Positions 5,524 through 50,182 are shown, numbered from the stretch's first letter. The stretch is DNA of 64,000 nucleotides from Candidatus Poribacteria bacterium (GCA_965208765.1 OZ242354.1:1383343-1447342), one strand, 5' to 3'. The notes: generated from the sequence alone by a model not told the origin. Numbers and translations are program-made.

Positions 5524-5788
5524 CTAGGTTCTGTTGACATTTACGTGAAGTGAGTGTCCAATCGTAGGGGCGAGGTTCCCTCGCCCGTTAAATGACGGGT
5601 TGGGAAACCCAACCACCAACTGAGCGAATAACGAAGGATCAAGGGAGCGGTTAGCGACCGCGATAGAAATCCCGTAGCGATCCCCTACGAAGATTGACCC
5701 AGTGTAGAGAGATCCCTTGTGGTTGCCCAACATTCTGCCTCAAGTGAATCAATATTGGCTCAATTTTCAAATGTCAACAGAACCTAGT
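5524..5788. repeat. structured element of about 265 bp (copy 1) bounded by a perfect 19-bp inverted repeat ctaggttctgttgacattt
   Basis: Perfect inverted repeat at both ends. Nested stems inside: cgtagggg...cccctacg enclosing gggcgagg-ttcc-cctcgccc and gggttggg-aaa-cccaacc. It shares a conserved core with 19600-19860. Confidence 0.5.
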
Positions 5789-6373: not shown

Positions 6374-6939
6374 CTCCACGATACATCGCTAGGGAAGGAA
6401 TTCGGTATTGGAAAGTAACTAACCCTCGAAGCACTAGAAATACCACGATGCCAATGCTATATAGCATAGTAAACATAACCTTCCCCCTATTTTTCTTTGC
6501 CGGAACAGTCGGTTGCGCTCAACTAAAGACCGTTGGTGAAGGAGGACTGGAGCGGGCAGAAGACAATACTTGAGTTGACGCAATAGGCAGTGTTTTGCAC
6601 TTCGATGTCCACGATTCGCTATGAAAACTACTCGAATCCGGCATGATTGTCCGTTTAACCGCCAATCGATTTTATCGTCGCCGGAGCAGTTAGACTGTCG
6701 CAATCCGGTTTGAATCGCTTGATATTCGGGGGTGACCCCATCGTCGATTTCACACATTCGGGTCCAGGCATTTCTAAAGGCGAAGTGAGGACAAGTGGCA
6801 GTTCGACTCCTGTTGTTCCCTCGCATTCGTCGTATTGATGGGTTGATTTCTTCGAACCAAGCAAGTGGACCCGATGCTGCGCATGTTTCGTCACTCTTAC
6901 AAACTGATCTAGGCAGTTACCATCGGAGGATAGCAGCGA

Positions 6940-14534: not shown

Positions 14535-14748
14535 CTAAACTCGGTAGGTGCGGTTTCCTAACCGCGCCGAGCATTGTTAGGATATTACCGAATTATTTTT
14601 TTTAACTTCATTTAGTGGTCTATTCGCTAAGAATTTAATGCTTACGAGACTGGCACAGAAAACTGTTCTACCACGCCGGTAGGTGCGGTTTCTAACCGCA
14701 CCGGCACCCAACTCTAACCATATTGTTTTGGAAAATAAACCATTTAGT
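14535..14748. repeat. 132-bp hairpin repeat family: degenerate half unit plus one full unit
   Basis: Contains ggtaggtgcggtttc(c)taaccgc and the full consensus gtggtctattcgctaagaatttaatgcttacgagactggcac...ccggtaggtgcggtttctaaccgcaccggcaccc...ggaaaataaacc. It matches the tandem array at 46496-47034. Confidence 0.85.
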
Positions 14749-19454: not shown

Positions 19455-19490
19455 CATACGGTAGGTGCGGTTTCCAACCGCACCGAGGTC
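19455..19490. repeat. solo copy of the repeat-family hairpin (ggtaggtgcggtttccaaccgcaccg)
   Basis: Same hairpin as the core of the 132-bp repeat. It sits about 60 nt after the aminotransferase stop. Confidence 0.6.
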
Positions 19491-19599: not shown

Positions 19600-19860
19600 T
19601 GATAACTGTTTAGTTCGGTCCAAAAAAGAAGAAAAATTAGTCTGGCATTTATTTGGGATTGACTGTCGCTAGGGTGAGCCTCCCTCTGCGAAAGTGGCAT
19701 CCCTCTGTGGGAAGGAATCAAGGGAGCGAACAGCGACCGCGATAGAGATCCCCCTGCCCCGATACTAACTACGGCGGACGTGCAATGAGTTGCTACTACA
19801 AACCGACATCGGCGGTATAGATTGATGAACTAAACAACTACAGACACTGAAACCACATGA
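19600..19860. repeat. structured element of about 260 bp (copy 2), sharing the gaaggatcaagggagcgNNNagcgaccgcgatagaRatccc core with 5524-5788
   Basis: Imperfect terminal inverted repeats (cactgataactgtttagttc / gaactaaacaactacagacactg) and internal stems (gtcgct...agcgac). A core of about 40 bp is about 88% identical to the element at 5524-5788. Confidence 0.45.
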
Positions 19861-20450: not shown

Positions 20451-20484
20451 CCCTTTCTTTAAACAGTCTTTTTTTACGTATGAA

Positions 20485-20545
20485 ATCCATTGAAACCGAG
20501 TTTTTTCCCGAAAACTTGGTTTCTTCCAACAATCCTATTTACCTC
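20485..20545. repeat. second hairpin repeat family copy (ttgaaaccgagttttttcccgaaaacttggtttcttcc...)
   Basis: About 85% identical over 55 bp to 37628-37685. It has a stem gaaaccgagtt/aacttggtttc. Confidence 0.5.
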
Positions 20546-22288: not shown

Positions 22289-24571
22289 CTATTTCAAAAT
22301 CACCATCCGGCGCGTAACGGAATAAGCGTCAGTCTCTAGCCGATAGAAATAAAGTCCCGACGCAACCGGTTCGCCAAGTCCATCTCGCCCATCCCAGTAC
22401 GCTGCACGGTTCCGACTCGTATACACGCCCGCAGGTTTGTGCCCGATCATCAGCGTTCGTACTCTCCGCCAGTTCATATCATAAATCGTCAACACTACCT
22501 CGGAGGGCTCCCCCAACTGATACGGTATCCATGTGTCCGGATTAAACGGATTGGGGTAATTCGGTAGCAATGCCGTCTGATTGGAAGTTAAAGAAGTGAC
22601 TGAGCGTGATAGTTCTAACAGTAGCCCGGTCTTATTGACGACTTCTATTCGTTTAACGCCGCCCCATGTCGTAGGAAGTCTGAGATCCCACAGCAGAACC
22701 GTGCTATCCCAACTCCCGCTGGCAAGCGTGTTCCCATCGGGAGAGAACGCTACAGAGTTGACTCTCCACCTATGTCCTGATAAGGTTCGTACCTGTTTCC
22801 CGGTGCGAACCTCCCACAGACGAACCGTTCTGCCGTAATTCCCGCTACCACTCGCAAGCATTCTTCCATCAGGCGAGAAGACGACACAAGTCACATCGTC
22901 CATATGGCAAGAGAGAGATTGCAAGTGTTCGCCGGTGATAGAATTCCACAAACGAATTGTACCGTCATCGCTTCCGCTAGCAATCGTGGTGCCGTCGGGT
23001 GAATATGCAACTGAATTTATCGTCCACTTGTGCCCGGCAAGAATCTTCGAGGTCTTTCCAACGCGGAGATCCCACACACGAATCGTTCCATCCCTGCTGC
23101 CACTGGCAAGCGTATATCCGTCGGGCGAGAATACTACGGAAGTGACTCCCTCCGTATGGCCGGAAAGAGTCCGCAAGTGCTCGCCGGTGAGAGAATCCCA
23201 CAAACGAATGGTGTTGTCGTGGCTGCCGCTCGCAAGCGTGAACCCTTCGGGCGAAAACGCAACCGTGTTAACTCCTTTCTGATGACCTTGAAGGCTGTGC
23301 AGGAGGTCCCCTGTACCCGAATCCCACAGACGAATCGTCTTGTCGTATTCCGCGCTCCCACTGGCAAGCATCATCCCATTGGGTGAGAAGGTTACCGAGG
23401 TGACCCAACCTGTATGCCCGGAAAAAATTCGCACAACTTTCCCGGTGCGCATGTCCCACAGACGGACGGTCCGGTCCCAACTTCCACTAGCCATTGTGTT
23501 CCCATCGGGAGAGAAGACAGCGGAGTTTATTCTGCCCGTTTGGCCCGCAAGAGCCCGAAAGCGTTTCCCTGTGCGAACATCCCAAATACGAACCGAGTTG
23601 TCGTAACTCCCACTGGCTAATGCGGACCCGTCAGCCGAATATGCTAAGCTGTGGACTCCCTCGGTGTGCTCCTCGAAGGTCATCAGGGCTTCCCCGGTGC
23701 GTGCATCCCACAACCAAATCGCCCCGTCATATCCTCCGCTGGCAAGCTCGTCTCCACCGGGTGAGAAGACTACGGAAGCAACTCTAGCTTTATGTTTTAT
23801 AAGCGTCTGAAGGTGTACTCCAGTGCGTGTATCCCACAACCGAATAGTGTTGTCGTGACTGCCACTGGCAAGTGTGAACCCATCAGGAGAGAAAGCTACG
23901 CTCCAAACTCCACCTGCGTGCCCTTCAAGGATCATCAGGGCTTTTCCAGTCCGAGCCTCCCACAGCCGAATTGTCTCGTCGGTACTCCCACTGGCTACCG
24001 CGCTTCCGTCGGGGGAAAACGCCACGGAAGTGATCATTTGCCTATGACCTTTAAGGGTGAGCAACTCTTCCCCTGACCGCACATCCCACAAACCAACCGT
24101 GTTGTTCCAACCGCCGCTCGCAAGTGTCAATCCGTCTGGGGAAAACGCAATGGAAGTGGCTCTGCCCGGATGTTTGAATGTCTGAAGGCGACGACCCGTA
24201 CGTGTTTCCCAGATTTGAATCGTATCAACATAAGATCTAAGGGAGAGTCTGGAATTAGAAAAACTGGCATTGGCAAACGTGTGCCCACTGGGCGAAAATG
24301 CCACGGCAGTGGTCCATCCCGTTTCTGCCGCATGTAGCGCGACTTCGACATCGGTGTTCGCATCGTAGAGCCAAACGCCGATGCTACCCCCGACCGCCAG
24401 CCACGCCCCATCAGGCGAATGCGCGATGTGGGATACAGAACCTTTGCCGAAACGTGCTGCGGCGCCGTCGGGCAGATACCAGCGGGTAACGTCGTGAGCG
24501 AAGCTGCTCCCGAACAACAAAGCAGAAACCAAAATAAGACCAAGCTTAACCAAGGAGTTTTTTCTCATCAA
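22289..24571 (-). CDS. WD40-repeat (beta-propeller) protein with C-terminal T9SS-type sorting domain
   Basis: Signal peptide. About 14 WD40 repeats (GH...SVAFSPDG...LASGSxDxTIRLWD). The C-terminal about 90 aa match the Por-secretion-tail/FlgD-Ig-like pattern (NYPNPFNP...GVYTS..WDGRD..GEPVASGLYFYRL). Confidence 0.85.
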   Translation of the reverse strand: MMRKNSLVKLGLILVSALLFGSSFAHDVTRWYLPDGAAARFGKGSVSHIAHSPDGAWLAVGGSIGVWLYDANTDVEVALHAAETGWTTAVAFSPSGHTFANASFSNSRLSLRSYVDTIQIWETRTGRRLQTFKHPGRATSIAFSPDGLTLASGGWNNTVGLWDVRSGEELLTLKGHRQMITSVAFSPDGSAVASGSTDETIRLWEARTGKALMILEGHAGGVWSVAFSPDGFTLASGSHDNTIRLWDTRTGVHLQTLIKHKARVASVVFSPGGDELASGGYDGAIWLWDARTGEALMTFEEHTEGVHSLAYSADGSALASGSYDNSVRIWDVRTGKRFRALAGQTGRINSAVFSPDGNTMASGSWDRTVRLWDMRTGKVVRIFSGHTGWVTSVTFSPNGMMLASGSAEYDKTIRLWDSGTGDLLHSLQGHQKGVNTVAFSPEGFTLASGSHDNTIRLWDSLTGEHLRTLSGHTEGVTSVVFSPDGYTLASGSRDGTIRVWDLRVGKTSKILAGHKWTINSVAYSPDGTTIASGSDDGTIRLWNSITGEHLQSLSCHMDDVTCVVFSPDGRMLASGSGNYGRTVRLWEVRTGKQVRTLSGHRWRVNSVAFSPDGNTLASGSWDSTVLLWDLRLPTTWGGVKRIEVVNKTGLLLELSRSVTSLTSNQTALLPNYPNPFNPDTWIPYQLGEPSEVVLTIYDMNWRRVRTLMIGHKPAGVYTSRNRAAYWDGRDGLGEPVASGLYFYRLETDAYSVTRRMVILK

Positions 24572-24956: not shown

Positions 24957-25093
24957 TCTTCCGCCCTTCCTTTCCAGCGCGGAAACTCCCGCATTATTCG
25001 AATAATCGATCGCCTACCATGCGGTTACCGAAGCAGGTAGTTGGGCCGATATGAGAATCGTATAACTCAAAGACCCGATAACAACACTATGAC

Positions 25094-25253
25094 ACTAAGT
25101 GGTCTATTCGCTAAGAATTTAGTGCTTCCGAGACTGGCACAAGAAACGGTTATACCGTTCCGGTAGGTGAGGTTTTTAACCGCACCGGCACCCAACAATA
25201 ACCATATTTTTTTGGAAAATAAATCACTAAGTAGCCTATTCGTTAAGAGCATG
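25094..25253. repeat. 132-bp hairpin repeat family: one full unit plus a partial unit abutting the IS left end
   Basis: gtggtctattcgctaagaatttagtgcttccgagactggcac...ccggtaggtgaggtttttaaccgcaccggcaccc...ggaaaataaatcactaagtagcctattcgttaagagcatg. Confidence 0.8.
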
Positions 25254-25263
25254 TTTGAAAAGT

Positions 25264-27092
25264 ACATTTGTAGGGTGCGCACGGCGCACCAGCCTTTAAA
25301 GCCCCAGTGGGGCGGAAGGTGTGTAGAAATACCGAAACCCTGTACGCCAAAGCCCCAGCGGGGCGACAGGTACATAGCGGTAAATTACAAAAACGCGTCT
25401 TCAAATGACTAAAAATGGCTTTGCTACCGAATTTTCAAACAGGTTCTAAGCTCGACTTTGTACAAAACTAGAAGGGGAATAAGGTAAAATTAGTCGAAAA
25501 AGCAACACCATTCGACTAAGGAGGTACACCTTGATTCCCCCATCGCTGATAACATTGTTAACTCCGTTTCAATCATTGTTTCGACGTCCTAGCTGGATTA
25601 AAATCCAAATCTTACTCGTTGGAACAATCCTTTTAACCGGTAGGCGAACAGTAACTCAAGCCCTGAGAGTGACCGGTCGGTCAGCCGACAATCGGTTTGC
25701 TCTGTATCACCACGTGCTTAGCCGTGCGGTTTGGTCCCCTCTGCAAGCCGCCCAAAAACTGTTGTTTACGTTATTGAAGTTCCTCGACGACGGTAAGCAA
25801 CCGTTAGTATTTGGCATTGATGAAACGATTGAGCGCCGCTGGGGAGCCAAAATCAAAGCACGAGGTATCTATCGTGATGCCGTGCGTTCTTCATCAAGCC
25901 ACTTTGTCAAAACCAGCGGATTACGTTGGATAGCGCTGATGTGGCTAACACAGATTCCCTGGGCATCATGTATCTGGGCGCTGCCGTTTTTGACGGCACT
26001 TGCACCCTCCAAACGTTACTATGAGTCTGAAAAACGTTGCCACAAGAAACTCACTGACTGGGCAAGACAAATTGTATTTCAACTTCGCCGGTGGTTGCCC
26101 AATCGTTACTTGGTTGTGGTCGCTGATTATAGTTATGCGGTGTTAGAATTCCTTGCAGCTTGCCAAGAATTGTCAAATCCGGTAACCATTATCACTCGTT
26201 TGCGACTTGATGCAGCACTCTACCAACCTGCTCCACCTTATAGCGGTACAGGACGTCCTTGTAAGAAAGGAGAGCGGTTACCTACCTTGGCTGACATTCT
26301 GCATGACCCAAACACCCAATGGCAGAACCTTGATTGGTATAACGGTCAACAAAGAGAAATGCAAATCATCTCACAGCCAACCGTTTGGTATCACACGGGC
26401 AAACCCCCGGTGTCAATCCGCTGGGTTTTGATACGAGACCCTCTTGGCAGTTATGAACCGATAGCCCTTTTATCAACTGACACAACACTTTGTCCCAACC
26501 AGATAGCCAACTGGTATGTTCGTCGCTGGCGAATGGAAGTCACTTTTGAAGAAGTGCGTGCCCATCTAGGCGTGGAAACACAAAGACAATGGTCGGATAA
26601 AGCGATTGCTCGCACGACTCCAATGCTATTTGGACTGTTCTCTTGGATTACCTTAGCTGCTCATCTACTGGTTCAACAGAATCAAGTAGAAGTGCGACAG
26701 GCTGCATGGTATCAGAAATCGTTAGCCACCTTTTCTGATGCAATAGGGTGGGTGAGACACCATTTTTGGTCTGCAGAAGCGGACATGACTTTTTCACAGG
26801 TCAACCAAAATGACCAGATGGTTAAAATCTCAACCGCTTTTCTCGAACGCTTGATTGACACCGTCTGTTATTCCGCTTAAATGTACAAAGTCGAGCTGAG
26901 AACCTGTTTGAATAATCGGTAGCGAAACCATTTTGGGGCATTTGTAGAAGTTTTTTCACGATTTTATTGTCTCCTGCTACGTACCTGTCGCCCCGCTGGG
27001 GCTTAGGTGCACGGGGTTTTGGCATTTCTATACACCTTCCGCCCCTCTGGGGCTTTTAGAGGCTGGTGCGCAGTGCGCACTCTACAAACGTA
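25264..27092 (+). mobile_element. IS4/IS701-like insertion sequence with about 210-bp terminal inverted repeats
   Basis: The left region (25264 to about 25470) and the reverse complement of the right region (26882 to about 27092) align along their whole length (tacatttgtagggtgcgcacggcgcaccagcc...gctcgactttgtaca). They flank a single DDE transposase ORF. Confidence 0.8.
25531..26880 (+). CDS. DDE transposase, IS4 superfamily (IS701-like)
   Basis: 449 aa. Candidate catalytic D (GIDETIERRWG), D (VVVADYSY) and E within a Y-x2-R-x3-E-x6-(K/R) motif (YVRRWRMEVTFEEVR). Confidence 0.85.
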   Translation: MIPPSLITLLTPFQSLFRRPSWIKIQILLVGTILLTGRRTVTQALRVTGRSADNRFALYHHVLSRAVWSPLQAAQKLLFTLLKFLDDGKQPLVFGIDETIERRWGAKIKARGIYRDAVRSSSSHFVKTSGLRWIALMWLTQIPWASCIWALPFLTALAPSKRYYESEKRCHKKLTDWARQIVFQLRRWLPNRYLVVVADYSYAVLEFLAACQELSNPVTIITRLRLDAALYQPAPPYSGTGRPCKKGERLPTLADILHDPNTQWQNLDWYNGQQREMQIISQPTVWYHTGKPPVSIRWVLIRDPLGSYEPIALLSTDTTLCPNQIANWYVRRWRMEVTFEEVRAHLGVETQRQWSDKAIARTTPMLFGLFSWITLAAHLLVQQNQVEVRQAAWYQKSLATFSDAIGWVRHHFWSAEADMTFSQVNQNDQMVKISTAFLERLIDTVCYSA

Positions 27093-29508: not shown

Positions 29509-29734
29509 GTAGTGCTATTTTCCTCGCGTCCTTTTCAAGTCGACATTAATGACGTCAAATGGTCCGACCGTGTTTACACCTTGACGCCAAAAAAGATGCG
29601 AAAATAGAAGAAGCGTTGCATCGGCTGAAATTCCCTTGGATTTCTCGTATAGGTTTGGGTCAATCAGCAAAAAAGCCATAAGAGGCGCGATTATTGCACC
29701 TCGGCAATAACTCGGTTCTCGACACAAGTCTGTA

Positions 29735-29800
29735 GGGTGCGCACTGCGCACCAGTCTCTAAAAGCTCAGCTTTGGCGGAAGGTGTGTAGTAACACCTGAA
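29735..29800. repeat. solo fragment of the IS terminal inverted repeat outer end
   Basis: gtctgtagggtgcgcactgcgcaccagtctctaaaagc...ggcggaaggtgtgtag matches the outer about 70 bp of the IS terminal repeat. Confidence 0.6.
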
Positions 29801-30622: not shown

Positions 30623-30745
30623 GCTAAGAATTTAATGCTTACGAGACTGGCATAAGAAACGGTTCTACCACGCCGGTAGGTGCGGTTTCTAACCGCACCG
30701 GCACCCAACAATAACCATATTTTTTTGGAAAATAAACCACTAAGT
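30623..30745. repeat. 132-bp hairpin repeat family copy directly abutting the IS-derived terminal repeat
   Basis: gctaagaatttaatgcttacgagactggcataagaaacggttctaccacgccggtaggtgcggtttctaaccgcaccggcacccaacaataacc...ggaaaataaaccactaagt. Confidence 0.85.
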
Positions 30746-32953: not shown

Positions 32954-33405
32954 ATGAGAAGATTTCACCCGCACCTGTTCATCAGTTGTTTGTTAGTCAC
33001 TAGCTGTGCGACCTTGCTCTCGGAACAGCAATATATCCAAGTTGATGAGAAAGTCACAGAAACCGTTCTACCACGCCGGTAGGTGCGGTTTCTAACCGCA
33101 CCGGCACCCAACATAACCATATTTTCTTGGAAAATAAACCACTAATGTACTCAATTCCCGAGAAAAGAGAAATCCGGAGAATCATTATTTTGGGCGAAGG
33201 AACAGTGACTAATGTTGATATTTATGCTCGCAACTCGGAGAATAATTGGAAGCGAATTAAGAAAATCAAGAAGACTGTAGGATTTCCGATTGAAATTAAT
33301 GTAGTTCTAAAGGCCGACGCTGTTCGGATTAACCAGAAAAGAATACGAGGCAGGGGCAGCATCAATTCGGTCCGATTTTTCGCGCTTTCGAAAGAACAGC
33401 AGTAG
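32954..33405 (+). pseudogene. lipoprotein-family gene (paralog of 5960-6373) interrupted by insertion of a repeat-family copy
   Basis: The N-terminal fragment (MRRFHPHLFISCLLVTSCATLL...QVDEKVTE) and the out-of-frame C-terminal fragment (YSIPEKREIRRIIILGEG...INVVLKADAVRI) are both homologous to the 5960-6373 product. They are separated by a repeat copy of about 91 bp (33055-33146). Confidence 0.55.
33055..33146. repeat. 132-bp hairpin repeat family: hairpin-containing half unit inserted into a coding sequence
   Basis: cacagaaaccgttctaccacgccggtaggtgcggtttctaaccgcaccggcacccaacataaccatattttcttggaaaataaaccactaa. Confidence 0.8.
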
Positions 33406-37501: not shown

Positions 37502-37627
37502 AGTACGGCTCCTTGTTTCCTAATATGATGATTGAATACGATTCATCGTGCGATTTCAGCCTATTTGCCCAGACTGAATTATTCCACAATTCGCCGCTTA
37601 GTGGTTAATTTTCTAAGTATTAACGCA

Positions 37628-37685
37628 CCTTGAAACCAAGTTTTTCCTGAAAACTTGGTTTCTTCCTAAATCCTAGTGGGCTTCA
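37628..37685. repeat. second hairpin repeat family copy in the 5' region of the M14 peptidase gene
   Basis: ccttgaaaccaagtttttcctgaaaacttggtttcttcctaaatcc: an 11-bp stem with a 9-nt loop. It is paralogous to 20485-20545. Confidence 0.5.
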
Positions 37686-44329: not shown

Positions 44330-45871
44330 ATGAAACATCATCGAAATACCATTCTCGCCATTCTTTCCGGCATTCTTCTTGTCCTGAGCCACCCCAGTTT
44401 TAACCTGTTCCCGCTCGCATGGATAGGACTTGTACCACTTTTGATAGCCGTAAAGTCCGTCCCAAACGTAAAATCCGCCTTCCGGATCGGTTATATTTCT
44501 GGATTGACGTTCTTCGGGGGGCTAATCTACTGGATTGTGCTGCTCTACCCGTTTGCAAACATTTTTGTCACTGTGCTGGGATATGCGGCTCTGGTCGCCT
44601 ACGCGGCTCTGTACTTCGCCGTCTTTTCACTCGCGGTGCATCAGTTGCCGCGAAAATCGGGGATGTCGTTCATTTTTCCGGCAGCGCTGTTTTGGACAGG
44701 GTTGGAGTGGATTAGGAGTTGGTTACTGACAGGTTTTCCGTGGGGTAGCATGGGCTACTCCCAGTGGAGCAATCACGCCGCCATCCAAATCTCCTCCATC
44801 ACCGGGGTCTACGGCGTTAGCTTCGTTATCGTGCTTTTCAACGCGGCAATCGCGTACTTAGTCATCTCGTCTTCCAACTGGCGAAGTGCAATCAAGGGAG
44901 TTGTATTCCCGGTCGCCATTGCGGCACTCACGTTCGCCTACGGCGCGTTCTGCTTATCCAATTCAGGAAGTGCGGCAGCGCGCGTTAAACTCGGGCTTGT
45001 TCCCGGTCATATACCGCAAGCCGAGAAGTGGAAATCGAAACACGCCCCCCGGATCTTCAAGCGATACCTTCGTTTAACCGAAAAAGCGAATGCCGCTAAC
45101 CCGGATATGGTCGTGTGGCCCGAAACTTCTATTCACCCCCAAATAACCTCCGGGCAGGCGAAATCGTATAAAAAACAGCTATCCGAAACGCTGCAAAACG
45201 GCCAAATCTATCTCCTTGCCGGCACGGCAGTCAGAGGGGTTGACAAGAAGGTATACAACAGTGTCTTGCTGCTCTCTCCATCGAACGAGAAACTCGGCAA
45301 CTATTCCAAGATGCATTTGGTGCCTTTCGGGGAATATGTGCCGTTCTCCAGCGCCCTTCCGAACTTCATCCAATTCGAGACATTCGCACCCGGAAAGTCG
45401 ATCAACCTTTTGCCGCTCGCCGATATAGAAGATGCCGAAATGGGAATTGCCATCTGTTTTGAGTCGGTGTTCCCCAATCTCTTTCGCAAGTTCGTGGCGA
45501 AGGGGGCAGACATTATGGGTATCTTGACCAACGATTCTTGGTTTGTAGGCACGACTGCACCCGCCCAACATCTATCCGCCGCGCCGTTCCGAGCCGTCGA
45601 AAACCGCATCTCCGTTTTCCGCTGTGCCAACGGAGGAATCTCCTGCATAATCGATCCGTTCGGGAGGATAACCAGTCGCACTATCACCCCAGCCCAACCC
45701 GATGGCGTTCTGGTAGAAGAAGTGCCTCTGAAAAATCATCAGAGCACAGGGGCGACGCTTTACACGCGCTACGGCGATTGGTTTCCCATTCTCTGTTTGT
45801 TGGCGAGCCTCGTACTAATTGGTCATCGAAACCGGACTTGGCTTCACTCCAAACTTCGGCGCGCCACCTGA
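44330..45871 (+). CDS. lnt: apolipoprotein N-acyltransferase
   Basis: N-terminal multi-transmembrane region followed by a CN-hydrolase domain (MVVWPETS...; catalytic Cys region AICFESVFP). The start was chosen at the Met immediately preceding the first transmembrane helix. The track ORF begins at 44237. Confidence 0.8.
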   Translation: MKHHRNTILAILSGILLVLSHPSFNLFPLAWIGLVPLLIAVKSVPNVKSAFRIGYISGLTFFGGLIYWIVLLYPFANIFVTVLGYAALVAYAALYFAVFSLAVHQLPRKSGMSFIFPAALFWTGLEWIRSWLLTGFPWGSMGYSQWSNHAAIQISSITGVYGVSFVIVLFNAAIAYLVISSSNWRSAIKGVVFPVAIAALTFAYGAFCLSNSGSAAARVKLGLVPGHIPQAEKWKSKHAPRIFKRYLRLTEKANAANPDMVVWPETSIHPQITSGQAKSYKKQLSETLQNGQIYLLAGTAVRGVDKKVYNSVLLLSPSNEKLGNYSKMHLVPFGEYVPFSSALPNFIQFETFAPGKSINLLPLADIEDAEMGIAICFESVFPNLFRKFVAKGADIMGILTNDSWFVGTTAPAQHLSAAPFRAVENRISVFRCANGGISCIIDPFGRITSRTITPAQPDGVLVEEVPLKNHQSTGATLYTRYGDWFPILCLLASLVLIGHRNRTWLHSKLRRAT

Positions 45872-46495
45872 ACAACACCGGATTCCTCAAACCCTGTAGG
45901 AGCGAGCAAGCGAACGGCCAGTGAGTGCAATGGAGTTTCGCTCCTGGTCGCGACCAAACCAATCCTCGATCGCCAACTACGCGATTTCCGCTTCCCTTCT
46001 AGTCATTGTTCCGCTCTCCAATCGTCCGCGTACAACCGATCCCTGCACCAAGTCGCCACAGCCCACTGCTTTTAGCCCTACTGTGCGATATTGTCGGCAT
46101 CTGATCAAAGATTCGTTTTGTCCCAATACTGAGGGTATCGAGATCGGGGTATCAGACACGGGATTTGCACCTCGAAAAACCTTACCTGAACATATCCAAA
46201 TTTCTTTTGGTGCCAGGTGCAAATTTCAGATGCTGTTTCCGCGGGCGACATCCGAGAAATGGTTGCCAAAATGCGGCGGCAATGTTAACATTCTACCGGA
46301 AAAAGTCGCGGTCTATGCCGCGAGCCGCATCAACTGGAGGACAGCGCGGAGATGCAGTTAGCCTTTATTGAGGGGGATTGTGAGAATTACACCAATTCTC
46401 ATGCATCGAATGCCGGAAAGTTGTCCGAGGCCTCTTTTCAGGAGTATGAAGCGGTTTCGGATGATGATATTGACGCACTCATTGATGAGATGAAG

Positions 46496-47034
46496 CCACT
46501 AAGTGGTTCATTCGCTAAGAATTTAATGCTTACGAGACTGGCACAAAAAACTGTTCTACCACGCCGGTAGGTGCGGTTTCTAACCGCACCGGCTCCCAAC
46601 ACTAACCATATTTTTTTGGAAAATAAACCACTTAGTGGTCTATTCTCTAAGTATTTAATGCTTACGAGACTGGCACGAGAAACCGTTCTACCACGCCGGT
46701 AGGTGCGGTTTCTAACCGCACCGGCTCCCAACACTAACCATATTTTTTTAGAAAATAAACCACTAAGTGGTCTATTCGCTAAGAATTTAATGCTTACGAG
46801 ACTGGCACAAAAAACTGTTCTACCACGCCGGTAGGTGCGGTTTCTAACCGCACCGGCTCCCAACACTAACCATATTTTTTTGGAAAATAAACCACTAAGT
46901 GGTCTATTCGCTAAGAATTTAACGCTTGCGAGACTGGCACAAGAAACTGTTCTACCACGCCGGTAGGTGCGGTTTCTAACCGCACCGGCTCCCAACACTA
47001 ACCATATTTTTTTGGAAAATAAACCACTAAGTGA
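46496..47034. repeat. tandem array of 4.1 units of the 132-bp hairpin repeat
   Basis: Unit starts at 46496, 46628, 46760, 46892 and 47024, an exact 132-bp period. The units are over 90% identical and each contains the hairpin ccgg-ta-ggtgcggtt-tct-aaccgcacc-gg. Confidence 0.9.
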
Positions 47035-47059
47035 AAAATAATGAGGGTAGGAGATAGTA

Positions 47060-47404
47060 ATGGAAGAATGGATTAAGTTTATCGCCCTACTGGTCGGGAT
47101 TGTGGGGTTGTGGTGGAAGCTCACCACCTCGATGGCGACCAAAGCGGAAGTAACGGCAGTAAAGACCGAACTCAGGGTTGAAATAGCTGAGGTTAAGGCG
47201 GACCTCAAAGAAGATATAGCCGAGGTAAAATCCGACATGGCAGCCATGAAAGGGGAGCTAAAATCTGAAATTGCCGAGTTGAAATCCGACATGGCGGGCA
47301 TGAAGGCAGATATCAAAGCGGAGAATGCAGAGCTAAGGGCGGACATCAGGGAGATTCGGCAACTGCTATACAAAAACGTTGTCGAGACCGAGAAGCATGA
47401 ATAA
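47060..47404 (+). CDS. small membrane-anchored protein with 11-residue amphipathic (apolipoprotein/LEA-like) repeats
   Basis: N-terminal transmembrane helix (FIALLVGIVGLWW), then 11-mer repeats EIAEVKADLKE/DIAEVKSDMAA/MKGELKSEIAE/LKSDMAGMKAD/IKAENAELRAD. A GGAG ribosome-binding site lies 7 nt upstream. Confidence 0.5.
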   Translation: MEEWIKFIALLVGIVGLWWKLTTSMATKAEVTAVKTELRVEIAEVKADLKEDIAEVKSDMAAMKGELKSEIAELKSDMAGMKADIKAENAELRADIREIRQLLYKNVVETEKHE

Positions 47405-47863
47405 TCGAGATGCGGTGTCGCGCGACGGTAACAGGTATTCGCAAATTGATGTTTTGCGGAACCCTCTCCGTCTATCTGCAAGAGAATCTCTTGAAAACGA
47501 CAGTGAATAAGGTATAGTCATGATAGATTTATTTCTACTATGGCGGTGGATGAAAAAAGAACGCGACGGTGAGACTCGATTGGCAAAACAAAGGGGTAGA
47601 ATAGAAGGGGCAAATGCGAGGGATAAAGTATGGATTTCGTGGTACGAGCGCAAGATGCAAGCGGAGCAGAATGGTGTTGAGTTTGATGAACCTCCGCCTC
47701 ATTTAGTGCCGCGCAAGCGTGCTAAAATAGTTAGGAGGTAAAGAGAGATTGTGACGCCGACAATGCGAAGCGAATTGGTAGGTATTGGGAGACTGGGCAG
47801 GGGATTTCTATCGCACTCCCTGATCGGTCGTTTGATTGCTCCCACTGCCCATATCCGCCGAGA

Positions 47864-50182
<2,319 letters not shown>

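Follow-up and report, generated by a model that had tools for sequence, protein, structure and literature searches.

The gene analysed here lies in a 64,000-nt stretch of a Candidatus Poribacteria genome (GCA_965208765.1 OZ242354.1:1383343-1447342), hereafter called the window, and encodes a protein of 114 amino acids. It is preceded by a tandem array of 132-nt units and followed by an ORF for a basic protein of 73 amino acids (47520-47741, +), which is conserved in L029, a marine metagenome scaffold carrying the orthologous locus, with 4 amino-acid changes, and which gave no match in Pfam, NCBIfam, PHROG or PADLOC. Upstream of the array, a small acidic ORF (46352-46570, +; MQLA...SDDDIDALIDEM...) now runs at its C-terminus into the first repeat unit. 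Comparable MQLA ORFs with the motif SDDxIDxLI stand directly upstream of family genes in the loci L013 and L015. An operon partnership of this 'MQLA...SDDDIDALI' ORF with the gene was rejected, because only the window, L013 and L015 have the ORF whole, its frame being disrupted in L008 and L019. Features of the locus are listed in Table 1.

Table 1. Features of the locus, with positions in the window (residue numbers refer to the 114-aa protein)
Feature	Residues	Position	Strand	Basis
Native upstream sequence, encodes ...SDDDIDALIDEM		46457..46495	+	blastn/alignment to L008, L015, L019, L013
Tandem array, 4.1 x 132 nt, 95% identity		46496..47033	.	Tandem Repeats Finder
Weak promoter-like site TGGAAA-18-AATAAT		47013..47042	+	9/12 matches
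Shine-Dalgarno AGGAG		47049..47053	+	6 nt 5' of ATG
Gene for 114-aa protein, stop codon included		47060..47404	+	ATG ORF, homologues, dN/dS
Hydrophobic segment, putatively membrane-inserted, WIKFIALLVGIVGLWWKL	4-21	47069..47122	+	hydropathy, alignment A2
Candidate beta-layer (coiled-coil N-cap) motif M-A-T-K-A-E	25-30	47132..47149	+	A2, hhalign, PMC4786415 consensus
Predicted coiled-coil stalk, 7/11/18-residue periodicity	31-104	47150..47371	+	self-match, Fourier, AlphaFold2
18-codon unit KSDMAAMKGELKSEIAEL		47228..47281	+	present in window, absent from L029
Conserved C-terminal stalk end KADIKAENAELRADIREIRQLLYKN	82-106	47303..47377	+	alignment A2

The ORF is a real, conserved gene under purifying selection. 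Over the two conserved ends of the protein, comparison with nine homologues gave dN/dS values of 0.05-0.15 with synonymous sites near saturation (pS 0.42-0.72). Constraint was most evident over codons 1-31, with pN of 0.055-0.083 against pS of 0.58-0.72 in eight of the nine comparisons; the exception, L012 (pN 0.40), carries an insertion in the hydrophobic segment. The good ribosome-binding site that a sequence-only reading of this DNA had attributed to the gene was also found, its AGGAG being the same in L029 and left without a pairing partner when the last array unit plus leader is folded as RNA. An antisense ORF of 347 aa (46438..47481, -), which could mislead gene callers, was rejected as spurious: it crosses the array and runs antisense to a gene whose plus-strand frame is under strong constraint.

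A protein search (E<=1e-3) retrieved at least 59 homologues, most of them 60-80% identical, 62-198 aa long and carrying either no name or only the label 'hypothetical protein'. The assembly index gave no entry when queried for an exact match to the window protein. Scanning one genome per species located 22 loci; every one belongs to a Candidatus Poribacteria MAG, and each genome has 3-5 of them. The family is unnamed, has so far been found in Poribacteria alone and is expanded there into several paralogues; its definition is of use for genome annotation. The paralogues occupy different settings, each conserved between species (e.g. the interval between dxs and tlyA, a TlyA-type methyltransferase gene, the vicinity of DUF5662 genes, and that of a BaxI-like gene), and neighbours include the housekeeping genes Lnt, KatG, dxs and tlyA. 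Family members are stable chromosomal genes and not the cargo of mobile elements. No universal gene neighbour was found across about 25 loci; synteny is clade-specific only and gives no pointer to a partner or pathway.

The array adjoins the gene, as previously read, with a gap of 26 nt before the ATG instead of 25. Single copies of its unit were found elsewhere in the window (14609-14748, 25093-25232, 30624-30745 and 33058-33145), together with hairpin-only fragments (14542-14569 and 19459-19485), all of them intergenic and on the plus strand, and a second Poribacteria genome (L027) has a portion of the unit as well. Minus-strand genes flank two of these four single copies on both sides, so that the unit shows no consistent promoter-like placement. 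The unit was absent upstream of the gene in all 28 homologous loci tested. The equivalent of the native upstream sequence directly adjoins the gene in L008, L015, L019 and L013 and is displaced by 538 nt in the window, which identifies the array as an insertion. In L029, homology to the window ends at about 47029 and a different repeat-like sequence lies beyond; as this contig ends 92 nt upstream, a farther array is possible there. On this comparative evidence, the array is best read as a dispersed intergenic MITE/REP-like element that was inserted and tandemly amplified, and that is unrelated to the gene.

The ends of the dispersed copies bear on the nature of this element. Both ends of the copy at 14609 show the variant CATTTAGT in place of the CACTAAGT of the other copies. 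This pairing suggests a target-site duplication, and thereby a MITE- or REP-like element with CCACTAAGTGG as its preferred target; such a preference would account for its tandem arrangement too. That all copies share the plus orientation could reflect strand-specific transposition. An Rfam scan of 45800-47900 gave no match at E<=1.

A promoter or structured 5' UTR supplied by the array, whose copy number would tune expression of the gene, had been suggested from the adjacency in the simpler form of promoter or 5' UTR, and several features favour it. The weak promoter-like site straddles the point where the last unit gives way to native sequence, the native upstream sequence has been displaced, and each unit forms a stable hairpin, the last unit plus leader folding at -45 kcal/mol (z = -2.4). 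Yet promoter-like sites are not above expectation in the region (4 found vs 2.5 +/- 1.6 in shuffles), and the last repeat unit contributes only the -35-like TGGAAA, the -10-like AATAAT being native and kept by L029 with a different upstream element. The dispersal of the unit and its absence from the homologous loci count against functional coupling as well, which we consider quite unlikely. The array may affect transcription incidentally, but it is not a conserved part of the gene's biology. Because it is missing upstream of every homologue examined, its adjacency to the gene is coincidental, and so is the eye-catching pairing of a DNA repeat with a protein repeat that had been regarded as unusual for one locus.

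Several other repeats were observed around the gene and across the window. Different intergenic repeats seem to meet at a point about 30 nt before the start codon: in L029 (1-61), the 60 nt immediately 5' of the gene belong to another repeat, found twice in the window (25389-25450 and 26905-26948). A dispersed motif of about 60 nt lies just downstream of the gene (47433-47496) and recurs in related genomes (L002/L003, ~6675-6737; L007, 5678-5739 and 1859-1916; L004, 2551-2608); it is found beside family genes in L008 and L029, and elsewhere kilobases away from them. The best promoter-like site of the region, TTGAAA-16-TATAGT (47491-47518, 10/12), ends 2 nt before the ATG of the 73-aa ORF, a placement unfit for that start codon. 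Further short dispersed intergenic repeat families were detected at 5638-5673, 19717-19752, 25269-25384, 29731-29796, 20470-20527 and 37609-37666, the genome being unusually rich in such repeats. Finally, eight diverged repeats of about 126 nt (42 codons; 22686-24118) lie inside a 760-aa ORF (22289..24571, -), which looks like a protein of tandem domains.

Turning to the protein, a near-invariant N-terminus (MEEWIKFIAPLIGIAGLWWKLTTSMATK) and a conserved C-terminal block (KADLKAENAELRADIREIRQLLYKNVV) enclose, in alignment A2, a middle whose variation is in entire repeat units. The N-terminal hydrophobic segment reaches a maximal Kyte-Doolittle 19-mer mean of 1.6 (residues 7-25), and L11, G13, I14, L17, W18 and W19 are invariant in A2; Glu, Ala and Lys abound in the remainder of the protein, whose C-terminus is hydrophilic. 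The uncharged stretch of the hydrophobic segment, between K6 and K20, has 13 residues only, which is short for a transmembrane helix and applies to the subfamily of the window protein; the corresponding stretch has 16-21 residues in 21 of the 51 members counted. Among these 51 members, the N-terminal flank carries on average 1.14 K/R and 1.98 D/E, and the 15 residues after the WW pair carry 2.41 K/R and 1.31 D/E. By the positive-inside rule, these flank charges weakly favour an N-out/C-in orientation, which would place the rod described below in the cytoplasm.

Four residues past the hydrophobic segment begins the sequence M-A-T-K-A-E. The form [MV]-A-T-K-x-[ED] was found in 49 of the 51 family members (exact MATKDD in three), and M25, T27 and K28 are invariant in A2. 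MATKDD-type sequences form beta-layers that N-cap coiled coils, with the consensus [aliphatic]-A-T-K-[polar]-[DE]; all crystallised constructs with the motif are trimeric, and the DUF1640 stalk was found to begin with it (Hartmann et al. 2016, PMC4786415). The window protein has Ala at the fifth position, where the consensus is polar. In the Tcar0761/DUF3782 coiled coils of the same study (PMC4786415), the six-residue motif likewise N-caps a coiled coil; the window protein differs by having a single copy, at the junction of membrane and stalk, and no repeated nonads, and its beta-layer is predicted from the motif. DUF3782 was absent from the 25 best Pfam matches.

The best Pfam match was CCDC90-like/DUF1640 (PF07798), a family including MCUR1, CCDC90B, yeast Fmp32 and many prokaryotic membrane proteins. 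The window protein scored 22.5 bits, below the gathering threshold of 33.5, which a longer relative (L014) passed with 35.0 bits. When A2 was aligned with DUF1640 proteins using hhalign, a probability of 98.8% was obtained (E=1e-16), with MATK placed on ATK and the coil downstream; the match spans residues 24-103 only, leaving the anchor unaligned. An exhaustive profile search returned 1680 proteins at E<=1e-3, most of them 150-200 aa long and matching profile positions ~21-30 to ~80-95 (i.e. motif plus coil). Profile matches among coiled coils are inflated by composition, and the window protein also gave weak matches to apolipoproteins, spanins, DivIC and many others. Among solved structures, the best match was 6h9l_A (MATK on MATKED, E=0.008); as the DUF1640 profile A4 did not retrieve 6h9l, we do not claim it as a DUF1640 member.

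Window family and DUF1640 proteins have in common [aliphatic]-A-T-K-x-[DE] at the stalk start, a membrane anchor, and an acidic/basic coiled coil with xIAEVKxDL-type repeats. They differ in that the window protein has no N-terminal head domain, the mere 24 residues before its motif being the hydrophobic anchor. The anchor is N-terminal and directly before the motif, whereas the transmembrane helix of DUF1640 proteins is C-terminal: the most hydrophobic segment was C-terminal in 50 of 59 DUF1640-type matches. The family moreover has a conserved C-terminal block of its own, ADIREIRQLL, and its located copies are restricted to Poribacteria. Because motif and coil align and the anchor does not, and because the DUF1640 hydrophobic segment lies C-terminally, the family looks like a DUF1640 stalk without its head domain and with the anchor at the opposite end. 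We know of no assigned function for the DUF1640-type stalk proteins of prokaryotes.

An alternative for the same N-terminal region is a cleavable Sec signal peptide with FIALLVGIVGLWW as its h-region and cleavage after S-M-A26, which would leave the mature coil periplasmic or secreted. The 13-residue hydrophobic stretch has the length of an h-region, and Ser at -3 and Ala at -1 satisfy the -3/-1 rule for signal-peptidase sites. The n-region is, however, net acidic (MEEWIK), as in the family as a whole, and the stretch is longer than 13 residues in the 21 members mentioned above. Signal peptides usually evolve fast, whereas nothing in this protein is better conserved than the segment in question. 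Furthermore, ATKx[DE] also opens the stalk deep inside DUF1640 proteins, where no cleavage site is possible. We therefore hold a signal peptide to be improbable, and give just as little credence to the conserved SMA-TK being a signal-peptidase site. A retained membrane segment is preferred, in agreement with the earlier prediction of an N-terminal transmembrane helix.

Beyond the motif, the sequence is strongly periodic. Self-identity was maximal at offsets of 7 (29%), 11 (33%) and 18 residues (39%), with further maxima at 25, 29 and 36, and Fourier analysis of I/L/V/M/F/W/Y positions peaked at 3.61 residues with a power of 3.46, compared with a maximum of 2.65 among 3000 shuffles. The sequence-only reading had described five or six consecutive 11-mers; periodicity as such was upheld, but the correct parse consists of one 11-mer (EIAEVKADLKE) followed by three 18-mers (DIAEVKSDMAAMKGELKS, EIAELKSDMAGMKADIKA and ENAELRADIREIRQLLYK). 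Core residues follow a spacing of 3-4-4 / 3-4, so that units of 11 and 7 add up to 18 residues per 5 turns; family-wide, spacings of 3 (173/465) and 4 (199/465) dominate. Drawn as a helical wheel at 100 degrees per residue, the repeat region fell into four clean stripes: a hydrophobic one of I/L/V/M is bordered by K/R on one side and by D/E on the other, and faces Ala or small residues across the helix. Only about 4-5 of the 18 wheel positions are solidly hydrophobic, Eisenberg hydrophobic moments stay at 0.09-0.2 across most repeats, and the repeats contain neither proline nor aromatic residues. AlphaFold2, run as a monomer with the family alignment, returned a single continuous helix from residue 2 to 113 (mean pLDDT 89.6), a model of a kind that cannot reveal a beta-layer or an oligomeric state. 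Hydropathy and this model bear out the general description of a small protein in which an N-terminal membrane segment is followed by a long periodic helix.

Resemblance to apolipoprotein, LEA or perilipin-like helices had also been proposed, which would have the helix lie flat on a membrane or lipid droplet, tethered by its N-terminal helix. Apolipoproteins A-I, A-IV and E, apolipophorin-III, LEA proteins and perilipins are likewise long, highly charged helices with a periodicity of about 11 residues, and a 3.6-residue period gives a straight hydrophobic stripe that suits a surface-lying helix too. Weak Pfam matches to ApoLp-III (PF07464, E=1.9e-4) and Apolipoprotein (PF01442, E=6e-3) were obtained, and apolipoprotein A-IV structures are also cross-matched by DUF1640 profiles. 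These matches nonetheless reached 22.0 bits against a cut-off of 36.3 and 16.7 bits against 90, respectively, and no LEA or perilipin family occurred among the 25 best Pfam matches (E<=0.07). The layout of the helix differs as well. In class A helices, basic residues line both edges of a wide hydrophobic face, the middle of the polar face is acidic, and the 11/22-mers are punctuated by proline. Here the stripe is narrow and of low moment, basic and acidic residues occupy opposite flanks, Pro punctuation and aromatic residues are lacking, and the strongest repeat offset is 18 (11+7) and not the 11 of LEA and perilipin repeats. The invariant MATK motif and the homology to DUF1640 stalks also indicate a coiled coil. 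The proposed resemblance thus lacks support, and a lipid-surface helix appears improbable. As judged from sequence, the repeat region bears the signature of a parallel coiled coil rather than that of a class A lipid-surface helix: a hydrophobic seam this narrow, bordered by basic residues on one side and acidic ones on the other, points to a parallel coiled coil with salt bridges between helices.

The number of strands is suggested by the core and the motif. Core residues are V, I, I, M, I, M, N, I and L at a positions and V, V, V, M, L, M, L and I at d positions. According to the Harbury rules, beta-branched residues at both a and d favour trimers, so the core leans towards a trimer. A conserved Asn89 at a core a position counts against it, Asn at this position favouring dimers in GCN4.

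Taken together, we favour, as more likely than not, a small membrane-anchored coiled-coil rod, probably trimeric, derived from an offshoot of the DUF1640 stalk and serving as a spacer or scaffold. The N-terminal hydrophobic helix (about residues 4-21) would anchor this single-pass protein in the cytoplasmic membrane, and its conserved residues may mediate trimer packing or the binding of a membrane partner. Four residues further on, M-A-T-K-x-E would form a beta-layer, i.e. a short three-residue crossing that caps and nucleates the parallel coiled coil. Residues 31-104 are predicted to be one continuous self-associating helix, most likely a trimer, forming a straight rod of an estimated 11 nm; the I/L/V/M core, recurring every 3.6 residues (18 residues per 5 turns), would hold it together, reinforced by salt bridges linking the K/R stripe of one helix with the D/E stripe of the next. 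As both ends are fixed (anchor plus MATK, and ADIREIRQLL) and the number of 7/11/18-residue units varies between them, the rod is expected to act as a spacer or scaffold that fixes how far from the membrane the conserved tip sits. Such a protein would have arisen from a DUF1640/CCDC90-like stalk by loss of the head domain, relocation of the anchor from the C- to the N-terminus and expansion of paralogues in Poribacteria. Selection on the coding sequence, the motif, the periodicity with its stripes, the variation in length, the homology with the DUF1640 stalk and the inserted state of the array are computed results, and membrane insertion with its orientation, trimerisation, the beta-layer and the spacer or scaffold role are inferences. 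By stripping the architecture down to anchor, beta-layer motif, rod and short conserved tip, the family offers a compact model for how a beta-layer may couple a transmembrane bundle to a coiled coil, how an 18/5 periodicity may give straight rods, and how a stalk may function alone.

An architecture of N-terminal membrane helix and long oligomerising helix, in about 100-150 aa, is known from ATP synthase subunit b, FtsB/DivIC, YhcB/ZapG and i-spanins, and subunit b also has a non-heptad (hendecad) periodicity. These proteins are analogues of the window protein, whose family differs by being multi-copy, variable in length and located outside atp, division and lysis clusters. Matches to them were below threshold: DivIC (PF04977) scored 19.2 bits against 28.9, with 3-5 paralogues per genome in unrelated contexts here; subunit B' of ATP synthase gave E=0.47; and Rz-like spanins in PHROGs gave only E=0.002-0.02, the neighbours of the window gene being Lnt and KatG. 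Matches to TraP, TatB-like proteins, GrpE, MreC, LeoA and ZorA (NCBIfam, PHROGs, PADLOC) were set aside as weak and driven by coiled-coil composition. A phage-derived lysis or structural protein in a prophage remnant (i-spanin, holin-like or Mu-type small membrane protein) is hardly credible, for in spite of matches to phrog_9415 (E=1.7e-11) and, over nearly the full length, phrog_736 (E=9e-8), both of unknown function, to DUF2730 in Pfam (E=3.5e-4) and, weakly, to the spanins, 2.9 million viral contigs yielded no relative, the surrounding genes have housekeeping roles, the vicinity contains no endolysin, holin or o-spanin, and the paralogues are syntenic across species.

Returning to the coiled-coil rod, variation in its length was examined between the two fixed ends. 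An IREIRQLL-like motif was identified in 30 of the 51 family members. Distances from MATK to REIRQLL were 18, 43, 50, 54, 61, 65, 68, 72, 79 and 86 residues. The differences between these distances are all within 0.11 of whole 3.6-residue turns, so that anchor and tip stay in phase along the hydrophobic seam. Length also differs between near-identical strains: the L029 gene, which shares the downstream ORF and the same KatG end, is 97.9% identical to that of the window, and the sole indel is an exact 54 nt (18 codons), i.e. 18 residues or 5 turns. As a more speculative extension, which we rate as unlikely, Poribacteria might possess membrane-anchored coiled-coil 'rulers' of the alpha/beta type, probably trimeric, that share one anchor and one tip. 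On this view the rods would range from an estimated 3 to 13 nm, as set by phase-preserving indels of 7, 11 and 18 residues. Were this true, the rulers could set or sense the distance from the cytoplasmic membrane to another cellular layer or compartment, and theirs would be the first beta-layer in nature to sit right where a transmembrane segment meets a coiled coil.

Some divergent or minimal members from outside the window (P0044, P0071, P0191 and P0184), down to 62 aa in length, have a His-rich end, LFxHVSDHEKH, where the window protein has YKNVVETEKHE. Binding of a metal or of a partner by the ancestral tip is conceivable.
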